Shown one piece after another: positions 9,490-34,542 of a DNA stretch of 64,000 bases. The notes below the pieces were generated by a model. The model was given only the letters and a program-made list of their open reading frames with translations. It was not told where the DNA came from and searched no databases. How positions within the stretch are numbered: the first letter of the stretch is position 1; each line of letters begins with the position of its first letter. This stretch comes from Minutocellus sp. GHC0000111 (taxonomy: Eukaryota), in assembly GCA_977018835.1 (NCBI GenBank), contig OZ361256.1:5456001-5520000 (forward strand), in the 5' to 3' direction. Both the position numbers and the translations under genes were made by a program.

Positions 9490-12400
9490 ATGAGCAGCGG
9501 CAGCGTGGCGGGCAGCGCCGCGAGCGCCGGCGGGGCCAGCGTCCACAGCGCCGCCAGTCGCCGTGCGGTGTCGGCAAGGCTCTCCAACACGAGCGCTGCT
9601 GCGGCGGATGCTGCTGCGGCCGCCGCTGCTGCGGCTACCACCACTTCTCAAAATGATGCGGAGCACAATGGCCTCGGCAATTCTCTCGCTGCCAATGCGA
9701 AGAAGGAGCCGGCCCTCATAACGGCCCTGTCGTATCGGGGAATGGAGGTGCTGTTCACCACGTCGACGACGCCTTCGGCCGGCACAGTCGGCTTGGGTTC
9801 GGGTCCTTCGGCCTCGCAAATCAGTGCTGGCGGCACTTCCACCCCCGGCACCACCATTACTGGCATCTTTGCTCGAACGCACGCGCCATTTTAGACGCTG
9901 GATCTGCCCGAAAATGATAACAGCGGCAGCGGCAGCAGCAGTAGTAGTAGCAAAAGCGGCGAATCTCCCGTGACCGTGGTGGCCCTGGTGTCCAACCCAA
10001 CGACCGGCCTCATCTGTGCGGCAACGTCCGATGGTCGGGTTCATACGTACTATCCCGTGGAAACATTGCCGGCTGCTTCAGGAGGTCCTGCTGCTTCCTC
10101 GTCCAATATGCCCTCGGGCCACTTTGGGGGTGTAGACGATGATATCATCGCCGAGGAGGGTGGTGAGATCGAGATCGGAGAAGGCGGAGATGCCTACTTT
10201 GCCGAAGGCAATGCCAGCGGCGGCGGCAGGGGCGGCAATGGTCCTTCCGGCGCGGCGGCATCTACCCGTCCCGTGGCGGCCTTTGGTCGGTACCGGTGGC
10301 TCACCGGCCGTGTGATTGACTGCACCGATGTGTTTGACGTGGCCGACGTCGAGCAGGATGACAACATGGAGGAGAAGAGATTGCGATTCGAACGACGCCG
10401 GCGAGAGGTGACGATAGCGATGGATAGAAGCAGCGACAACAGCAGAAAGGATGGTGGTGATGGTGGTGGTGGTCGTGATGATAATGATCAAGCAGGCCAC
10501 GACAGTACCAATCACAGTCCCTCGCGGCACGTCATATTATCCACTTCTCTGGATTGGAAGGTTCTCGTGGCCCACCGGGAGCAGTTGGCGATATTTGATG
10601 TGGCGCCAGTCGACTTGGTCGATGGACCAGTGCCGGGTTTGGACTACGGAGGTGCCATCCCCCCGACACATGCTGCATTCGAATTCGCGGGGGAAGTCCC
10701 CTGAACGCTGCTGAAAACTCCCCTCCTACATCTCCCGGTGGTACTAGTACGAAGAAGGATAGCCACGGAGGTGGCAAAATGCTCCTCCCGCCTGCTGCTG
10801 CGTTGCTTTGGACGGTCAAGACACCGGCCGTCATTGTAACGGCGTCTATGAGCGGCAACGGTCGTGCAGTTGTTTATGTATTGTCCGGTGAGGGGGAAGG
10901 TGTGCCCTACCCCTACGGCGCAAGGACGTATGTGAGGGATGGAGATGATGGTGCAGCGTCTTCCCCGCCGTCTCGAAGTCCAGAGTCGTCACCCATGCCC
11001 ACAAAGAAAGGTCTGTCGCCGAAACAGATGAAACAGTTGCAAAAAAAATGATGAATGTCTCTATCTCGTCGGACTTGTCCAATATTGGCATTGTGTACAA
11101 GGCAGGGCCGTTCTTGAATCATTCGGCTCCTGTTACGAGGGTATCCTTCCGAGGACGTGGGCTTAACCATTCTACGCTGTTTTCGCCACCCTCTTCCATG
11201 CTGGATGACTCAATGACAAGCGATGGCAATGCCGAAGATGAGGGCAATGATTTGCTCTTGACTTGCTGCCGGAGAGATAGTACTTGCCGAGTATTTTCGC
11301 AAAATTCCTGGAAGCAATTGCTCCAATGGACGGCTCCACCGAGCTCTCGTGCAGACTGGGTGCAGGGCATTACTGCGGCAAATCTTGGAGACTTGGATAT
11401 CGCTCCCGCAAGGAAAAAGGGTGGCGGCGGGGGTAGCAGCGGTAGCGGTACAGGCACTGTTACCAGCAGTCCAGCGGGAAGTAGACCGGGAAGCCAGCCT
11501 GGTTCAAGCCCAGCTTCCCGACGTCCTTCTGGTTCGTCGGATGGGGGAGGCAGTGGAGGTATCAACCGCCATTTGCTAGGACAAGATGGTTCATCGCAGC
11601 CATTCCAGTCACTACCATCGCACCCCTCGCCGAGTTCCAATGCTGGCGCTTGGATATCAGAGTTGACCTTTCGAGGAGGTTTCCCTGCCCTTCGACTTTC
11701 TCGACTGAGCTATCTCAAATCTGGCAACAATGATACCGCCCCTGCTCATTTTGAAAGCGTTGCTGCAATATTACCCCCCGGCACCCTTAACGCCGATGCC
11801 GTTCTTGGCGGACGATGTGGAAGCGATGAGGACTATGTAATGGCCGTGCAGGGATTGTGGTGCGGATGGGACCCTTGGGAATGTGGCCACGGGGGGAACC
11901 AAATGAGTAGCGGCGGCGACCTGGCAGGGTCTGCTCTGGCCCTTCTTGGAGGCGCGCCGGCTTCGACATTGCAGGGAGGGAACCTTACTTCCTTGGGGAC
12001 TGGCAATCTTGGTGGTAGCCATGCCCCTCCATCTGAACTTCGAATTATATCTTCTCACGGGGTCCCTGGTAAAGCTATCATTATGGAATTCCCCTTGTGG
12101 GGCGATCGGGAGTTGGGTGCCATGGAGCTTGGATCTCCATATCGATATCTCCTCTCTTTGCCTGGAAATGACGAGGACGTTGCTGAAGACCTTCCCTTGA
12201 AACCTTTGCCGGCTGTGCTCGAATTTGAGTCGTCACATCTCAATGCATCAGTATCTGACGATGGCAAGGCGATTGATTTGACATGGAGGAAGAAGGGTTC
12301 TATGAATGTTGTTTCATTGGGGCCGAAAATGGTGGACTCGTTCTCTCGGATACCTTCGTTGGAATCCATGGCATCAACCGCTAGCCTTGACTCTGATGAA

Positions 12401-25684: not shown

Positions 25685-27074
25685 TCAAAATTTTGTCAGA
25701 GCGGTAAGCGTTTCCAAAATAGCCTCTTGTAAGTTACCACCAGCTGAGTCATCTTTTAATTGATACCCGCCTTCCAGACCCATCATTATTCGTGGGAGGT
25801 CTACATGTGGTCCTATTTCTCTACTCAAATGCTCTTTCAGCAATCGCATCATTCGGCCATAGTCTGCTGCCGTCAAATCACAAGATGCAAGCTCATCACT
25901 ACTTAAGGCATCATATCCCGCACACACTATGATGAGATCTGATTCCCATGTATTTCTTTTGTATATAAATGGCAATATCCTCTCTTCATATGGTAATTTG
26001 TATCCGCACGTCCATGAACTTTCTGGGGGAAGCGGCACCGTGAGTACATTGTCGTGTAATCCTGCAATTCCTCTCTTGGATCCAAGATAGGGAAAGGCCG
26101 GATATTGGTGAAGGCTAGCATATCGACAGCTGTCATAGCTCTGCATTATGTCAGCAACTCCCTGCCCATAATGAACGTCAAAGTCCAGTATTGATACTCT
26201 GCGATTGCTTCCTCCTGAACTTTGGATTGCATGAATAGCAGCTGCTGCGGCAAAGTTGAAAATGCAAAATCCATTTGCATTGCTTTTTGTAGCATGGTGT
26301 CCAGGCGGTCGAGTGAGGGCCATTGAATATGCAATGGAATCGCCAAAAGGATCACCGCCTGATAATAGCACATCATCTACCGCCCGAATCCAAGCTGCTG
26401 CGGCTCGAAGTAGTACGTTGAATGATTCGGTTGTCAGGTAGGTATGTGTCACCACCATCGTCGACATATCCAATAAAACCCAACGGATCTTTCCCTTCGT
26501 CAACTCGGCGTTGCCGGCAGGCGTTGCATTTGTCTTCTATGTTGTGTACATACTCTTCGGAATGAGCTAGGATTAGCATATTCCGAGCATGCGCAAGTTC
26601 ACATGACGAGAATGGTCGATGACCACATGCAGCTGTGCCACCACCAGCATTTTTCGGCAAATCCGCTACGTCGTACAATCTCAAGGAACCCCCAATGGCA
26701 CTTCCGTCAGTATCATCCATCTCATTGCGTAGCTTATTGACACAAGCGTCGATTCTTGCCGGCGACTCTGGGTGATATGTCCGATCCCGATGACAATCGT
26801 TCGTAGAATCAAAGTAGATGTTGATGTAGCGCTGTTCTGTAATGTCATCAGTAGCCGCGGCTGCTGCCCTGACAGGTACTGGTACCAACCGATTGGCGCA
26901 AGATTGGCGAATTCCGAATGCAGGTGGCAGAACTGTCGTCCTTGCAGTTGGGGGCAGAGCATGTAACCAATTCGATCTGAACAGATCTTTGGTCGAGCAG
27001 CCGGACGATCTTTGTAGTGGGAACGAGAACAAGGCGAGGACAAGCGGCCACAACGACGCCGATGCAAAATGCAT
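25685..27074 (-). pseudogene. Histone-deacetylase-family protein with signal peptide, frameshifted by a 4-bp duplication
   Basis: HPESPARI, RPPGHHA, NGFCIFN, DFDVHYGQG, AGYDAL, LEGGY, split over two frames. Removing one GGTA at 26437-26444 restores DGGDTYLTTESF. Confidence 0.8.
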
Positions 27075-27461
27075 CTCGAAACCTCGAAAAATAATTTTGC
27101 AAAACACTCGAGATTCGACCAGTGCATTTACACTCAGCCTGCGTCCCATCATCGAGGGGCAGCTGACTGCCTGGCGACGATGATTTCGCCGCAGGATCTT
27201 TCACTCGGCTCATAACCCGTTGGATTGTCCGAAGGATCCACATCCCGCGCCTACTTGAGTACATGTCATGTAGGAGCTAGCTATGCCACATCTGTACAAT
27301 GAAAGTTGGGAAAAACACTCATGTAACATGTGGTACAATTTATCAGCGGTTATGCTTTCTCTGAAGATCAAGATAATAGTAGGTGGGATAGTTTATGCAT
27401 GTGTTGTTTAGATCTACATGTAGATCTGCTATCATGCCGATTTGCCTTTTCCATCAACTTT

Positions 27462-28250
27462 CTAGCTCCCACGGTATGTTGAATAGGAGTACTTTGAAAC
27501 CAAAAATGGGACGTGGTAATGCATTGTTGCATCGTCGACTCCAAATCTTATTGGTACCTTAGACAGGAAGGGGATTCCATCTCGCTGTTTCATGTGCTGC
27601 TGCTCAATTCTGCCATCAAAGTATGCCGACACATGAAAGATCAGCTCGTATTCTCCAGCAAAGAAGTCGTCTCCAGATAAAAGTGATGATCCGTCGATCC
27701 TGCCATCTGCATTGGTTGTGAAAGTTCCAAGCTTTGTTCTTGTCTCGCCATCTGCATATTGACTCTCTTCATCTTTGGATGCATGTGCTGTTTGTATTCG
27801 ACACAGCACAATATGCATTCCTTCTGCTGGAATGCCATTTGCAGTGTCCAAAACATGTGTGGTCAAACACCCGCCGTCGCAAAAATACGTCTGCTTTTGT
27901 TTTGCTTCGTTTATGTCGGCGCTGGAATTAATGTCGACTCCTGTCGCCGCGGCATGATTTGTTCGTTCCGCAATAATTCTGCTACTTTGCTTCTTTGCCG
28001 CACCGGTACGAGACTTTCCATCTTCGTTTCGTCCTAGCAGTAGATCCGACGAATGCGGCAATCTGTCGATGGCTACAAAAATCAGCAGGCCCAGCAGCGA
28101 TACCAAAACCAGGCATAATATGCGACGCTGATGGCCCAGGGCTGCTTTGCGGCTGCTTTCGACGAAGTATGCTGACGCCGACGACGAGGACAAACTTCCG
28201 AGTAAGGCAGCATGCTCAGGCGAGCTGAGGAAGCGCCTCTGATTGGTCAT
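27462..28250 (-). CDS. 5-hydroxyisourate hydrolase (transthyretin-like) with N-terminal TM extension
   Basis: LTTHVLDTANGIPA, TNADGR, HYHVPFLVSKYSYSTYRGS (diagnostic YRGS C-terminus). Hydrophobic ILCLVLVSLLGLLIFVAI upstream. Confidence 0.9.
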   Translation of the reverse strand: MTNQRRFLSSPEHAALLGSLSSSSASAYFVESSRKAALGHQRRILCLVLVSLLGLLIFVAIDRLPHSSDLLLGRNEDGKSRTGAAKKQSSRIIAERTNHAAATGVDINSSADINEAKQKQTYFCDGGCLTTHVLDTANGIPAEGMHIVLCRIQTAHASKDEESQYADGETRTKLGTFTTNADGRIDGSSLLSGDDFFAGEYELIFHVSAYFDGRIEQQHMKQRDGIPFLSKVPIRFGVDDATMHYHVPFLVSKYSYSTYRGS

Positions 28251-28666
28251 GGTCGGCACCGCTTGCCTTATTTTGGCCGTCTCATCCTGGCATCAGGGGT
28301 GTATAAGAGAGCAAGACGTTAGCCGCCGATAATGAGGGGATTCGGTGGTAGTGATGGTGTGAGGCAGGCGGCGCGCTTTGTTCGTTTTCGCCTCGTGGCG
28401 GTTCCGCCATCAGCCCGCGGCCACGACGCACATTACCAATGTAGAATGAGGCTTTGTTTTAGAGGGACATTTTTTTCCCTTTTTCCGGAAATCCCCCTCC
28501 TTTTCTTTACCCTACCAACGGAGAGTGACGAACGAAGGGCGCTCACTGGCGAGCGTTGCTGCCTTGCTTTGCGACGCTTTGCCGCTCTGACCGTTCGTTT
28601 CCATCACCGCTTGCACTCTTGCGTTGCTTTGTTGTCCTGGAGACAGATACGAATAGAATAAGAAGA

Positions 28667-30340
28667 ATGAAGTTCACTGCCTCCGCCATCGCCCTCGCGG
28701 CCCCTCTCATGGCCAATGGTGCGTTCCATTTTTCTTGGAGATTCATTTATCGAGCTGGTCGAACGAAATGTGGAGGAGGTCTGACGCATGATGGCCAGCC
28801 AAGAAAATACGTCGAATTTCTGAGCTGCATCAGCGATTGCACTGACTCGGAGCAGGTGGAAGATGAGATGCGGCCAAGTGCTTGTTGGAGAATCAACGAA
28901 TTAGTATCTGGTCCAATTGCAGCGGTGCTATTCACTCGAAGCTGTCGTATCTCTGGCCATTTTCGAACTCAGCTGGTTTCGAGCACATCATGTGCTACTT
29001 TTCGACTACTGCAAGGACATATCGTCGTCGGTGATATGCATCCCATTGCGACCGTGATAGATACCATATGAGACCATCCCGAACAACAATGATTCCTAAC
29101 TACATTGATTCTTATATATCTTCCATTCTTCAATTTCTTGCTTGCAGCCTTTGCCCCCGTCCAGAACCTTGGCCTTACCACCAAGGTCGCCGCTCCCGTT
29201 TCGTCGGTCGGACCTGCCGGAACTCACGGTGCCTTCTGCCCCTGCGACGGATGCCTTGCCATTGCCCGCCATCCCGTGAGTTTTACCAACTAGAAGCATG
29301 TGTTGCATGTTTGCATGTTTTACACAAATATCTTTCACACATATTCTAACCCTCTTATCATGTTACTTTTTCCCTATACAAACCCCATGCAGTCCACCTG
29401 CGGCTGCGATGCCTGCGGCTCGACCGCTCTTCGCATGTCGGATGCCACCGCCGAGGTCCCCGCCGAGGTCGAGGCCATGGACGGCATCGCCTCGGACGAG
29501 GAGGCCCACAACGCCGAGCGTCCTGCCCGTTCCTCCATCAGCAAGAAGAAGGGCGGCGCCAAGTCCGGCACTCCCCTCGCTGATCTCGAGATCGGCTCCT
29601 CCGTCGAGGGCACCGTCAAGGCCGTCCAGGCCTACGGTGCCTTCCTCGACATTGGCGCCCAGACCGACGCCCTCCTGCACGTGTCGCGCATCTCCGACGA
29701 CTTCATCTCCAACGTGGAGGACGTCGTCAAGGCCGGCGACAAGATCACCGTCCGCATCGTCAGCGTCGATGCCGACAAGGGACAGATCGCCGTCACTGCC
29801 CGCAGCGAGGAGGCCGAGAAGGCCGCCGCCGATCGTTCCGCCGGTGGCGGAGGACGTCGTCGCAACCGCCCCCAGCGCTCCGGTGGAGACCGCGAGGCCC
29901 AGAAGAAGACCCTGGCGGCTCTTTCCGATGCCGGATACGACGGTGACAAGTTCGTGGAAGGATCCGTTGCCTCCATCCTTGACTTTGGTGCCTTTGTTCG
30001 ATTCGATGTCTCCCAGCTTGCCGAGGGTGTTGAGGGTGAGCTCGATGGTCTGGTCCACATCTCGGCCCTTCAGGCCGGCCGTACCAATGCCGTCACCGAC
30101 GTTGTGTCTGTTGGCGATTCCGTCAAGGTCCGTGTCAAGAACCTCGACGTTGCCGGTGGCAAGGTCGGTCTTTCCATGATCTCCAAGGAGGACGAGCCCG
30201 CCCCCCGGGAGCGCAGGGAGCGCGCCCCCCGCAACCAGCGATGGAGTCCCGATGAGATGGGCGCCGCCGATTGGGCCGACACCATGAAGGACCTCGAACA
30301 GCCGACCTTTGTCAACGGGCCCGTGCTCATCGAACGCTAG
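28667..30340 (+). CDS. Plastid-targeted protein with two S1 RNA-binding domains (PSRP-7/ribosomal S1-like), 3 exons (28667-28718, 29148-29275, 29393-30340)
   Basis: Spliced N-terminus MKFTASAIALAAPLMANA-FAP...THGAFCPCDGC...HPSTCGCDAC.STALRM. S1 motifs YGAFLDIG..DALLHVSRI and FGAFVRF...DGLVHISAL. Confidence 0.88.
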
Positions 30341-30773: not shown

Positions 30774-31418
30774 ATGGCGCGCCTTTTCTCATTTATCGCC
30801 ACATCCACTCTCATCTTCCTACTTGCGATCTGCGCCCAAAACCCGGCTACAATTTTTGCGAGTGCGCAAAGTACCGGAGATGATCCATCGGAAGGAAGCA
30901 AGTGCCCGTCCAGTCTCAAGCTCAACCAAGAATTTGGCAGCGAAACAAAGAAGAATACTCGTTGCCTGGCCAACACATCGGGCGTCAAGTTGCTCATACA
31001 TATTCAACGACACTGTGCTATCGACGGCAGTGGCGGCTCCAGCGACAGCTCCGAGTGCACCGAATCACACGCCCTCAACGTCGCCGTCAACGCCATGAAG
31101 GACTACGAGGAGACGCATGGCATGAAACGCGGCAAGGATTATCACATCGCCATTGTCTTGAATGGCGAGGGCGCCATCTTTGGATTGGATCCTGATGCCG
31201 ACGATGCCAACGAGCGATCCACAGAAAATCATTCTCCCGAGGTTGTAAGCAAAGACCTCCTGGATCATGGCGTGTCGATCTATCTATGCCAAAATACCGC
31301 ACGCAGTATGGATATAAAGCTACACCAGCTTATCGATGGGGTCCAATTTGTTACTGCTGGAGTTACTGCCATTGGCGATCTCCAGTTGCAAGGCTATGCT
31401 TTATATACAGCATTGTAA
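30774..31418 (+). CDS. DsrE/DsrF-like family protein with signal peptide
   Basis: HIAIVLNGEG, GVSIYLCQNT (conserved Cys), GVQFVTAGVTAIGDLQLQGYALY. Intronless, hydrophobic N-terminus. Confidence 0.8.
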   Translation: MARLFSFIATSTLIFLLAICAQNPATIFASAQSTGDDPSEGSKCPSSLKLNQEFGSETKKNTRCLANTSGVKLLIHIQRHCAIDGSGGSSDSSECTESHALNVAVNAMKDYEETHGMKRGKDYHIAIVLNGEGAIFGLDPDADDANERSTENHSPEVVSKDLLDHGVSIYLCQNTARSMDIKLHQLIDGVQFVTAGVTAIGDLQLQGYALYTAL

Positions 31419-31697: not shown

Positions 31698-32504
31698 TTA
31701 TTGGGAAACACCGGCGCAAGTAGCGCATGCGCAGCCAGCAGCGTGGGCCGAGGGGGCACAGGCAGCACATGCGCAGTTGGCGGGGTGGGCAGAAGTACTG
31801 CACGCAGAGCAGGTGCAGAAGGCACCGTGAGTGCTGGCACTGCATGCCGAGCAACCGCAATCATCACCGTGAGACGACATTTTGAGGCTAGTGGAACTGC
31901 ATGATGCGCAAGTGCACGTTGCCGAATGAGAGGCAGTGCACGCCGAGCAGCCGCAGGTGCTGGGATGAGCGGCCGAGGCACATCCAGGGCAAAGGCAGCC
32001 GGCAGCATCATGAGTCGACGAGGTGGCGACCGACTTGCCAGAGGTGGCCGGTCCACAGGTACGGCAAAGGCCATTCGACACCGAGGGTGCAAAAGCTGTG
32101 GTGTGAAGAAAATGCAATTATATAACGGTGTAACGGTGAGAACGATGAACATGATTGTGATCGATCGGACAATGTCCGAGGCTATTGCAAAAAGTCAAGG
32201 AATTGAAACTAGAACACGTCCTCATTTATTGATCCTGCTCATATCTTGTCCAATTCAAACCCATGCAAACGCCAATTAGGAGCAAGATGCTGCGTTCCAC
32301 CATGCATAATACATCGGGAGGAAGAGCCCGCAAGCACTCGTCACAATCACTTCCTGATTGAACCAATTCCTCCTCTTCATGTTGTATCTTTCGTCCGTTC
32401 GAGCCCAACTTCGCCGGCACAAAAAGTGAAGCGAGCCAAATGCGCAACTCACCCGAAACCGAAGCGGCTGAAGCGACGGTGAGGAACGAGGCGGCAACCT
32501 TCAT
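31698..32504 (-). CDS. Plastid-targeted metallothionein-like Cys/His-repeat protein, 149 aa, 2 exons (32504-32453, 32095-31698)
   Basis: Spliced MKVAASFLTVASAASVSA-FAP followed by 7 H-x3/4-C-x-C-x2-C modules; 23 Cys and 7 His. GT-AG intron 32096-32452. Confidence 0.82.
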
Positions 32505-33129
32505 CTTTATGCTATTCAATATCTTCAAACGATACGTAGCAACAACACCAATCTAACAGCGGGCAGAAGTTCCCCAAAGCAAGCGCAAGTGATACGACGT
32601 ACGACGTTGCTTGTTCCGCCGGGCAGTGTGGTAATGGGAATTTTTGTAGTTTTCGTTTAATTTTCATATCTATGAGGGACTGACGTGTTCCCAAATACTG
32701 TCTTCTAAGCGCGGCCGATTTGTCAAGCAGATTTCGTTCGCATTCTTCGTTCGCATTCTTTCGCCTTCTGAACGTTTCCAGCCTTCTGAGAGGCAGTCCA
32801 AAACAAGAGAGATTTTTGAAGGAAGCGAAAAACAGCCACGTCAGAAAACTTCCTTGGAAATTCGAGAGGGAAAAGCCCGCCAAAGCGATCAAGGCCGAAA
32901 CGAAAAAGAGGCAAGGATAAAAAACGAAGTGCTTGGCCAGACACTGGGCAAACCGATCGCGGAGACGATGATGCCAGGCGTTGGATGCATGTACCAGATA
33001 GATAGTATGATAATATGTGTACTCCTAGTTATATTTTGAAGCAAGATGCACAACAATCAGCCATTATTCTCGTGTTCGAGCAGTCAGCACAACACGTTTG
33101 CCCGCCCGCTACGTGTAGTTGTGCCAACG

Positions 33130-34542
33130 ATGGCGAGACCTCCTCATTCTCGACGTCGCCGTACCTCATTTGCTCGTGATAGACAAAATGATCGATTCTC
33201 TCATCTTGCAACGCTTGTAATCGTTCTTGATGAGGAAGAAGTGGAACATCTCGGTTCGAAACTTGGTTGTAAAAACATATCAAGAGTTCGGAAAAGCGTT
33301 GAGAAGATGATTCTCGAGCTCGGCATCAGCGCAAGAAAGGCATTGCGAATGGACCCCAATGCCTTTTACCATCTCCATGATGTTCTCGAGGCTGACATTG
33401 CTGCAAAGTTCAGTTCCCGAAAGGCTGGCGATGCCACTGGGGGTCAACTCGCTCCCAACGGTTTGGTGTCAACCAAGCTTCGGCTAAGTTGCGCCATACG
33501 ATACTTCGCCGGCGCGGCCGTGTACGATCTCATCCTTACTCACGGCATGGGACGATCGACCATATATCAATCCATATGGGGCATCGTAGACGTCATTAAT
33601 CAGAGCGATGATCTTGCACTCAATGCCGACAGTGCACCATTGCCGAGCAGGAAGACATTGCTGCTGGTTTTCTTGAAAAAAGTAGAGTTGGATTCGACAA
33701 TGTTATTGGTGCTATTGATGCAATGCTTGTTACAATTGATTTGCCCGATAAAGGCAGCTGCAGAGACATTGGAGTAGGTCAGAAGAATTTCCACTGCTCT
33801 AGGAAAGACAAGTATGGACTTGCACTACTTGCTACATGCGATAACGAGTGTCGATTTCGATGGGCCGATGTGTCCCAGCCTGGAAGATCATCGGACTACT
33901 TGGCATTCACCACATCGGAGTTACCGGCAGCGCTTGAAGATGGGCGAAATGGTGGCGATGGCGCCACGGAATCGGTTGTTGGTTGGCGGAGAAATGGCTC
34001 TTCGAGTGTGCGTGCAAAACCAGGATACATTGGTTGGTGATAATGCCTTCGTGAAGACTCATTGGATGGCTGTTCCATTTCCTGGAATAGTGGAATCACC
34101 AAAAGACGACTATAATTTCTTCCTCTCTCAGCTTCGCATAACAATCGAAAGAGCATTTGGAATTCTCATTCATCGCTGGGGAATACTTCGTCGACCCCTC
34201 GGTTGCCCCGTTCGAAAGGTAGGTGCACTCACAATGGCTCTCTTACGGTTGCACAACTTTTGCATCGACAACAATGGCAGGAACGTGCCAGGAAGCACGA
34301 CGAGAGACATTGCAAGAATTCATGAAAGGGCGGCAAGAAGGGTTAGAGGTCAGTCTGGTGAGGTGGTGGAGCTGGATCGCCATGGCCGGCCTGCCCAACT
34401 GCTTGGCCATGGCCATCACTTCACCGACCTTCCCAGAGGACGGCGGCCGGTTGTCGTCGGCGAGGACGAGATGACGCCGATGGATCTGATGGTCGAGGAG
34501 GTAGCGCAAAGCGGCCTTCGTCGACCAACTCGTAGGAACTAA
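33130..34542 (+). pseudogene. Harbinger/HARBI1-type DDE transposase with two frameshifts
   Basis: LRLSCAIRYFAG, IGAIDA (D), GRSSDYLAF, LVGDNAF (D), YNFFLSQLRITIERAFGIL (E), LHNFCI. Frames switch near 33640 and 34030. Confidence 0.9.

Follow-up and report, generated by a model that had tools for sequence, protein, structure and literature searches.

A conserved cysteine–histidine module in the transit peptide of a diatom S1 protein and in an apparently derived, metallothionein-like neighbouring gene

Transit peptides are usually treated as disposable, unconserved address labels. In the window analysed in the present study (64,000 nt of contig OZ361256.1 from Minutocellus sp. GHC0000111; all positions are counted from its first letter), a gene for a predicted plastid protein with two S1 RNA-binding domains carries in its presequence a Cys/His module that recurs in a Cys-repeat gene nearby, raising the questions of whether the module is under selection, what it could do in a peptide that is cut off, and how both genes came to hold it. 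Sequence comparison reveals a real and conserved form of diatom plastid presequence that appears to be undescribed, together with a metallothionein-like gene family apparently derived from it; neither a Cys/His module within the transit peptides of diatoms nor such repeat proteins were found described in the full-text literature, in which few subscription papers were covered.

Structure and expression of the two genes

The S1 gene consists of three exons on the forward strand, which when joined encode 376 aa. Exon 1 (28667–28718; 17 codons plus 1 nt) encodes a putative signal peptide and is followed by a phase-1 intron of 429 nt (28719–29147) in the codon before the F of ANA-F. Exon 2 (29148–29275) encodes the start of the transit peptide, module 1 (HGAFCPCDGC, 29225–29254) with the spacing H-x3-C-x-C-x2-C, and the H-P of module 2 (HPSTCGCDAC, 29270–29416), which is split between HP and ST by the phase-0 intron 2 (117 nt, 29276–29392) and completed by exon 3 (29393–30340). 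The spliced product contains both modules, THGAFCPCDGC and HPSTCGCDAC, between ANA-FAP and STALR-MS, and the joining of the second across intron 2 in the preliminary description of this locus was right. After splicing, ANA-FAP reads as a signal-peptide-type end followed by F at +1, as in diatom bipartite presequences, and the end of the transit peptide (29417–29437) contains STALR-M, whose Met codon is 29435–29437 and at which cleavage in the stroma is predicted; STALR-M-SD fits the rule of Leu at −2, removal of Met and an acidic mature start given in the accessible part of the reference study (PMC3774753). The predicted mature protein (29438–30340), which contains no Cys, is made up of an acidic leader followed by a pair of RNA-binding domains of the S1 type (PF00575 twice). 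Two S1 domains and plastid-type targeting are shared with bS1c and PSRP-7/PETs, but the EF-Ts part of PSRP-7/PETs is absent; matches to chloroplast S1 and PSRP-7 have E values of 7.5e-18 to 4.8e-17, PSRP-7 ranks tenth among S1 proteins, and bacterial bS1, Rrp5 and CvfD/GSP13 score as well as or better than plastid S1/PSRP-7, which leaves any assignment to bS1c or PSRP-7 tentative.

The Cys-repeat gene lies on the opposite strand, 1.4 kb beyond the S1 stop codon. Its exon 1 (32453–32504) encodes a putative signal peptide, again of 17 codons plus 1 nt, and is separated by an intron of 357 nt (32096–32452) from exon 2 (31698–32095), which encodes three modules, a cleavage-site-like STSLK-M (Met codon 31880–31878), four further modules and the stop. 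The precursor of 149 aa therefore has seven modules in a 3+4 layout around STSLK-M, with 23 Cys, 7 His and 3 aromatic residues in total. A six-frame scan of the whole window for unspliced H-x3-C-x-C-x2-C detected the motif once in the S1 gene, six times in the Cys-repeat gene and once at 11053 on the reverse strand, to which the split S1 module and the first module of the Cys-repeat gene (with H-x4) have to be added.

All three introns, two in the S1 gene and one in the Cys-repeat gene, were spliced as predicted in six of six near-identical RNA runs (X1–X6) from two studies, the spliced joint of S1 exon 1 being present in RNA contigs, and the transcript-sized relative P0002 has the same joined S1 presequence. 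No splice form skipping a module was detected in the RNA contigs of these runs; skipping of S1 exon 2 would shift the frame. RNA contigs also cover intron 1 of both genes (28719–29147 and 32096–32452). A DsrE-like gene with a signal-peptide-like start lies between the two genes (30774–31418, forward strand) and had no RNA cover in the runs compared, so carry-over of DNA is an unlikely source of the spliced joints and the intron-covering contigs. For the Cys-repeat gene, spliced and intron-covering contigs were both present, with end-to-end cover in several runs. Retention of intron 1 would detach the signal peptide in both genes alike, and the next in-frame Met after this intron is, in either gene, the Met of the cleavage site, which could yield cytosolic forms.

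Of 16 genomic orthologue loci, eight have S1 intron 1 in the identical codon and three have it a few codons further on; in the other five, the rule used did not detect it. Intron 2 was read by eye inside the last module also in three other loci (L030, L037 and L047), which implies that its position is old.

Conservation of the module and removal of the presequence

The S1 part of the protein has 995 relatives, and among the 120 listed, 53 have a complete presequence, of which 43 carry at least one module. A wider set of 92 distinct and complete presequences was assembled from the listed relatives, cluster members and 80 metagenome loci, with intron-containing loci left out. Carriers made up 79 of the 92, with one module in 34, two in 34, three in nine and four in two, and 13 had none; outside this set, the intron-containing locus L058 has seven modules, and L066 has five. 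Named carriers include Odontella aurita, Helicotheca, Dactyliosolen, Chaetoceros debilis, Skeletonema menzelii, Thalassiosira rotula, T. profunda and Discostella pseudostelligera. M1 and F19 were invariant in 30 aligned presequences, which had been chosen as module-bearing.

For the analysis of selection, 28 sister pairs were taken from a quick tree of the 92 rows (SH-aLRT only) and aligned with lowered Cys and His scores to guard against circularity. Cys was identical at 238 of 266 positions (89%) and His at 52 of 78, compared with 46–54% for other residue classes, and 50 further Cys fell in gaps, which represent gain or loss of whole modules. Within the transit peptide 10.5% of the residues are Cys, and within the mature part 0.13%; the Cys codons are mixed (202 TGC, 110 TGT). 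In the 13 of 16 locus pairs that were comparable, 14 of 39 Cys codons differed silently, the absence of Cys replacements being by construction, and 45 of 78 spacer codons changed residue. On these comparisons, the conservation of the ligands is a matter of protein-level selection and not of a DNA repeat, and the module is conserved in orthologue presequences; the putative metal-ligand residues are kept across centric diatoms and probably more widely.

The module-less presequences fall in several separate clades, even beside near-identical carriers (L021 versus P0050), and the lack of a full module in 13 of 92 implies that it is dispensable. Such losses, together with degenerate copies (P0106, P0120 and P0050) and the free copy number, would suit an old functionless insertion in a permissive transit peptide, kept or spread by slippage and conversion. 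This explanation is very improbable and largely refuted by the far better conservation of Cys and His than of their flanks alongside silent codon change, and all ligands are kept in the expressed stand-alone genes as well. Also against it, C-x-C-x2-C occurs in none of the 63 measured transit peptides of T. pseudonana in the accessible data of the reference study, which are 12–42 aa long (PMC3774753); according to our own count, only five of them contain any Cys, with six Cys overall.

Other features place the module-bearing peptides within the diatom bipartite type, namely the signal peptide, F at +1, a Ser/Thr-rich basic transit peptide (mean charge +3.2 and 1.1% acidic residues in the module family), Leu at −2 with the Met then removed, and the acidic mature start (compared with the accessible part of PMC3774753). 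They differ from that type in their length, which is 56 aa for the present S1 gene and about 125 aa for L058 where 12–42 aa were measured, and in their 10.5% Cys at fixed spacing with ligands conserved across diatoms. With 56 aa, six Cys and conserved ligands, the transit peptide of the S1 gene lies outside the short, Cys-poor and unconserved norm.

Evidence on whether the module persists in the mature protein comes from an orthologue. An N-terminal peptide of T. pseudonana protein 21235 was recorded at Ser90, with six acetylated and three dimethylated spectra (Table S5 of PMC3774753, from its accessible part), and it matches the conserved mature start of the S1 family, directly after the L-x-M site, so the module is probably not retained. 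In the family, the first mature residue lies at 42–64 in presequences with no module, 57–89 with one, 74–89 with two and 90–102 with three, and in the Thalassiosirales clade 15 of 16 rows have full modules. Because position 90 belongs to the three-module class and is far from the module-less class, the precursor of 21235 is predicted to have three modules, and a three-module presequence is probably removed from it. As far as the accessible text states, the reference study examined N-termini at positions 16–75 and annotated plastid proteins (PMC3774753); position 90 is outside this range, which accounts for the absence of 21235 from the 63 transit peptides and points to a blind spot of N-terminomics, since an N-terminus at position 90 was not listed. 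Four Cys strings searched for in the N-terminal table of that study returned no module peptide.

The module appears to belong to the S1 family and its derivatives and not to plastid proteins at large. A repeat profile run against longer proteins gave one match among 7994 scored candidates, an S1 orthologue, which is weak evidence, and the ESM Atlas yielded no usable match.

Metal-site likeness and possible roles of the module

HXXXCXCXXC has been described as a putative Zn site of TRPC5, and a similar site was reported to coordinate Zn in UHRF1, according to the accessible part of PMC7683545. The same source notes that the Zn density in TRPC5 left some ambiguity and that these Cys can also undergo glutathionylation or palmitoylation. 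The ligand spacing H-x3-C-x-C-x2-C is identical in the diatom module; however, the TRPC/UHRF1 Cys3His site is single and lies in a folded protein, whereas the modules of the S1 gene are tandem and lie in a targeting peptide, and the shared spacing is likely convergence. A different CxCxxC, in DUF971, is found in the accessible part of PMC7980591. At the position four before the first Cys, 87 of 135 modules have His and 16 have Cys; three fixed Cys and a fourth residue that alternates between His and Cys would fit one tetrahedral soft-metal site per module. Each module likely binds one soft metal ion, with Zn as the most likely candidate.

A search of PDB sequences with the repeat HMM returned no significant match (best E 0.1), the fold search returned S1 proteins only, and metal-free AlphaFold models were uninformative, with a pLDDT of about 36–53 for the presequence and a mean of 40 for the stand-alone protein. 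The latter matched no Pfam family at E 0.1 and none in NCBIfam at E 1. As in metallothioneins, the stand-alone product is small, His-containing, built of repeats and without a predicted apo fold, with 15% Cys; unlike them, it has a plastid presequence, and the nine motifs given in the accessible part of PMC7216689 do not include its unit. According to the same source, few metallothioneins are known from diatoms, with one predicted in T. pseudonana.

A transit peptide with ligands kept across diatoms must act before or after being cut off, and since the mature S1 protein is without modules, selection would fall either on the precursor during its passage or on the peptide once it is freed. The best explanation, with a probability of about 0.5, is that the cassette is cleaved and released in the stroma as a small metallothionein-like metal-binding peptide. 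The tandem-S1 protein would be made as a precursor whose transit peptide holds the conserved His/Cys3 repeats, each repeat would take up one soft metal ion, most likely Zn, the repeats would likely be cut off in the stroma, and the freed peptide would act in the manner of a metallothionein that is supplied together with the plastid translation machinery. This reading is favoured because the number of copies varies freely, as it does in metallothioneins, and because the stand-alone genes place most of their modules after the cleavage site, which implies a stromal role. Against it stand the dispensability of the module, the lack of an evident reason for a metal buffer to ride on one protein, the normal degradation of transit peptides (PMC3774753, accessible part), and the negative result for the four Cys strings in the N-terminal table of that study.

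The fixed distance of the last Cys, which lies 6–7 residues before the Met in 33 of the 43 module-bearing presequences among the matches listed, would speak for the main rival, a metal-sensing gate, in which binding of Zn or Cu folds the transit peptide or masks its cleavage site and thereby tunes the import or processing of a translation factor. The stromal processing peptidase is a zinc enzyme, and in a variant of this model free thiols might contact its zinc. The tie of the module to one RNA-binding family and the intron within the last module, here and in the three loci named above, also speak for a gate. Nevertheless, a gate is unlikely considering that the copy number ranges from zero to seven and differs between near-identical relatives, that repeated loss argues against a strict and essential gate, that the four modules after the cleavage site in the stand-alone genes cannot gate cargo, and that the orthologue was processed normally in standard culture.

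Diatom plastid proteins take an established route via the ER lumen, and the passage of the precursor through this oxidising compartment could favour a thiol-redox or lipid-modification element, in which disulfides formed there, glutathionylation or acylation control passage across the second membrane. Glutathionylation and palmitoylation of the TRPC5 motif Cys (PMC7683545, accessible part) are in line with such an element. The odd number of Cys per module and the swapping of His with Cys nevertheless fit four metal ligands better, and this explanation is considered quite improbable.

Under the preferred released-peptide reading, the module would join the cleaved N-terminal pieces that are selected beyond addressing. 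Known presequences and N-terminal partners with a second life include the Rieske presequence in complex III, ubiquitin–ribosomal protein fusions and phosphorylated plant transit peptides, and to our knowledge none of these is a tandem metal-site repeat or a source of stand-alone genes. In the zinc-poor seas where diatoms live, a metal buffer hidden in the plastid, or an import step that responds to metals, would, if true, be new biology. The broader proposal that the plastid S1 transit peptide is a metal-carrying or metal-sensing device, freed in the stroma as a His/Cys3 metallopeptide and tying plastid protein synthesis to Zn (or Cd/Cu) status, and that it has been duplicated more than once into stand-alone plastid metallothionein genes, so that a targeting peptide would have given rise to new genes, is put forward tentatively and is less likely than not.

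Origin of the stand-alone repeat genes

The DNA of the two genes is alike in one short stretch, as the preliminary description had noted: 29222–29245 is identical at 23 of 24 positions to the reverse complement of 31809–31832, in the fifth module of the Cys-repeat gene, and all other 24-mers in the window are below 19/24. Given identical residues, the seven identical codons have a probability of about 0.017, uncorrected over 14 module pairs, which is modestly beyond codon bias. In both genes the protein begins with MK and intron 1 follows after 52 nt, and their exons 1 are identical at 27 of 52 positions (a level reached by 81 of 2000 codon shuffles), while the first introns are unalike (their score is matched in 60 of 200 shuffles). 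Once Cys is masked, the Cys-repeat protein finds its best match among the 92 S1 presequences in that of its own genome (score 85; P0002, 83; next, 77); when only the part before the first module is used, its own S1 presequence ranks tenth. Shared ancestry or conversion of the two presequences had been proposed, and of these, shared ancestry is supported by the Cys-masked alignment and the common intron, the weight of the latter hinging on the background rate of such an intron in plastid genes, whereas recent gene conversion between the two genes is possible but weakly supported.

The direction was most likely from the S1 presequence to the Cys-repeat gene, since the module goes far back in the S1 genes of diatoms in general. 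In this history, the duplicated 5' end of an S1 gene would have undergone repeat expansion and lost its S1 domains, giving a predicted plastid metallothionein-like gene. Four relatives of the Cys-repeat gene were found among 68 candidates, and three of them are close orthologues that also have the 3+4 layout. A search of 1.84 billion representatives with an HMM built from 30 presequences gave 11 matches, comprising four full S1 proteins, four probable fragments of S1-precursor starts, two stand-alone repeat precursors and one unrelated repeat; in this search, single short modules on other proteins fall below the threshold. Stand-alone precursors whose modules flank a cleavage-like site occur in the present lineage, in Odontella aurita (P0167) and in a distant lineage (P0166). 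The best match of P0166 is the S1 presequence of the distant P0116 (score 190, next 100), and P0166 and P0167 both end in CAACK, with stops not seen as DNA, so either may be a cut-off S1 precursor. The S1 precursor of L058 has three modules, an internal STRLYA, four modules and then STRLF-M, recalling the 3+4 layout. The simplest history would have the stand-alone genes arising from the S1 5' end on two or more occasions, or on a single occasion followed by concerted change. The variant HGAFC is present in the window and in P0002 and P0154, and HGASC in P0007 and P0155, the S1 and Cys-gene relatives being of like divergence; these paired variants would be a hint of concerted evolution if P0002 with P0154, and P0007 with P0155, each come from one species.

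At locus L072 the same tail-to-tail S1/Cys-repeat pair is present, with no room for a DsrE-like gene, and it is the only one of 21 other loci of at least 2.4 kb with a stand-alone cluster beside the S1 gene, the flanks often being short. In addition, P0157 (a JGI contig of 120,875 nt) has a presequence-like start, six modules, GLR-M and a short non-repeat tail, and may thus represent another cargo, from a different alga; family scans of the whole protein gave no match, and the tail may resemble HopJ-family proteins.

No ancestor of the module was identified among tandem-motif loci from DNA scans, which comprised 75 prokaryotic and 13 viral loci, mostly low-complexity frames or frames with stops. 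Scans of 11 ORFs assigned one to CobW, one to Hsp90 and two to surface-repeat proteins and left seven without a family; in L120:1060-2343 and L087:763-2751 the motif is a double insertion, in the His-rich loop of a GTPase of the CobW family and in a clostridial Hsp90 linker. In bacteria, two to four diatom-like tandem units were also observed in ORFs lacking a Pfam match, namely in L081:880-1965 and L107:1096-2271 (Leucobacter), L082 and L153 (Dehalococcoidia) and L140. The viral contigs L158 and L161 have an ORF of 333 aa in which a hydrophobic stretch is followed by two modules in tandem, that of L158 being without a Pfam family.

Adjoining the Cys-repeat gene, the region 33040–34542 (forward strand) holds two ORFs whose translations give the impression of a Harbinger/DDE-type transposase region, the first of them without a Pfam match. 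Upstream of the S1 gene, an HIU hydrolase/transthyretin gene (27462–28292, reverse strand) was recognised by Pfam and a histone-deacetylase-like gene (25685–27200, reverse strand) by eye.
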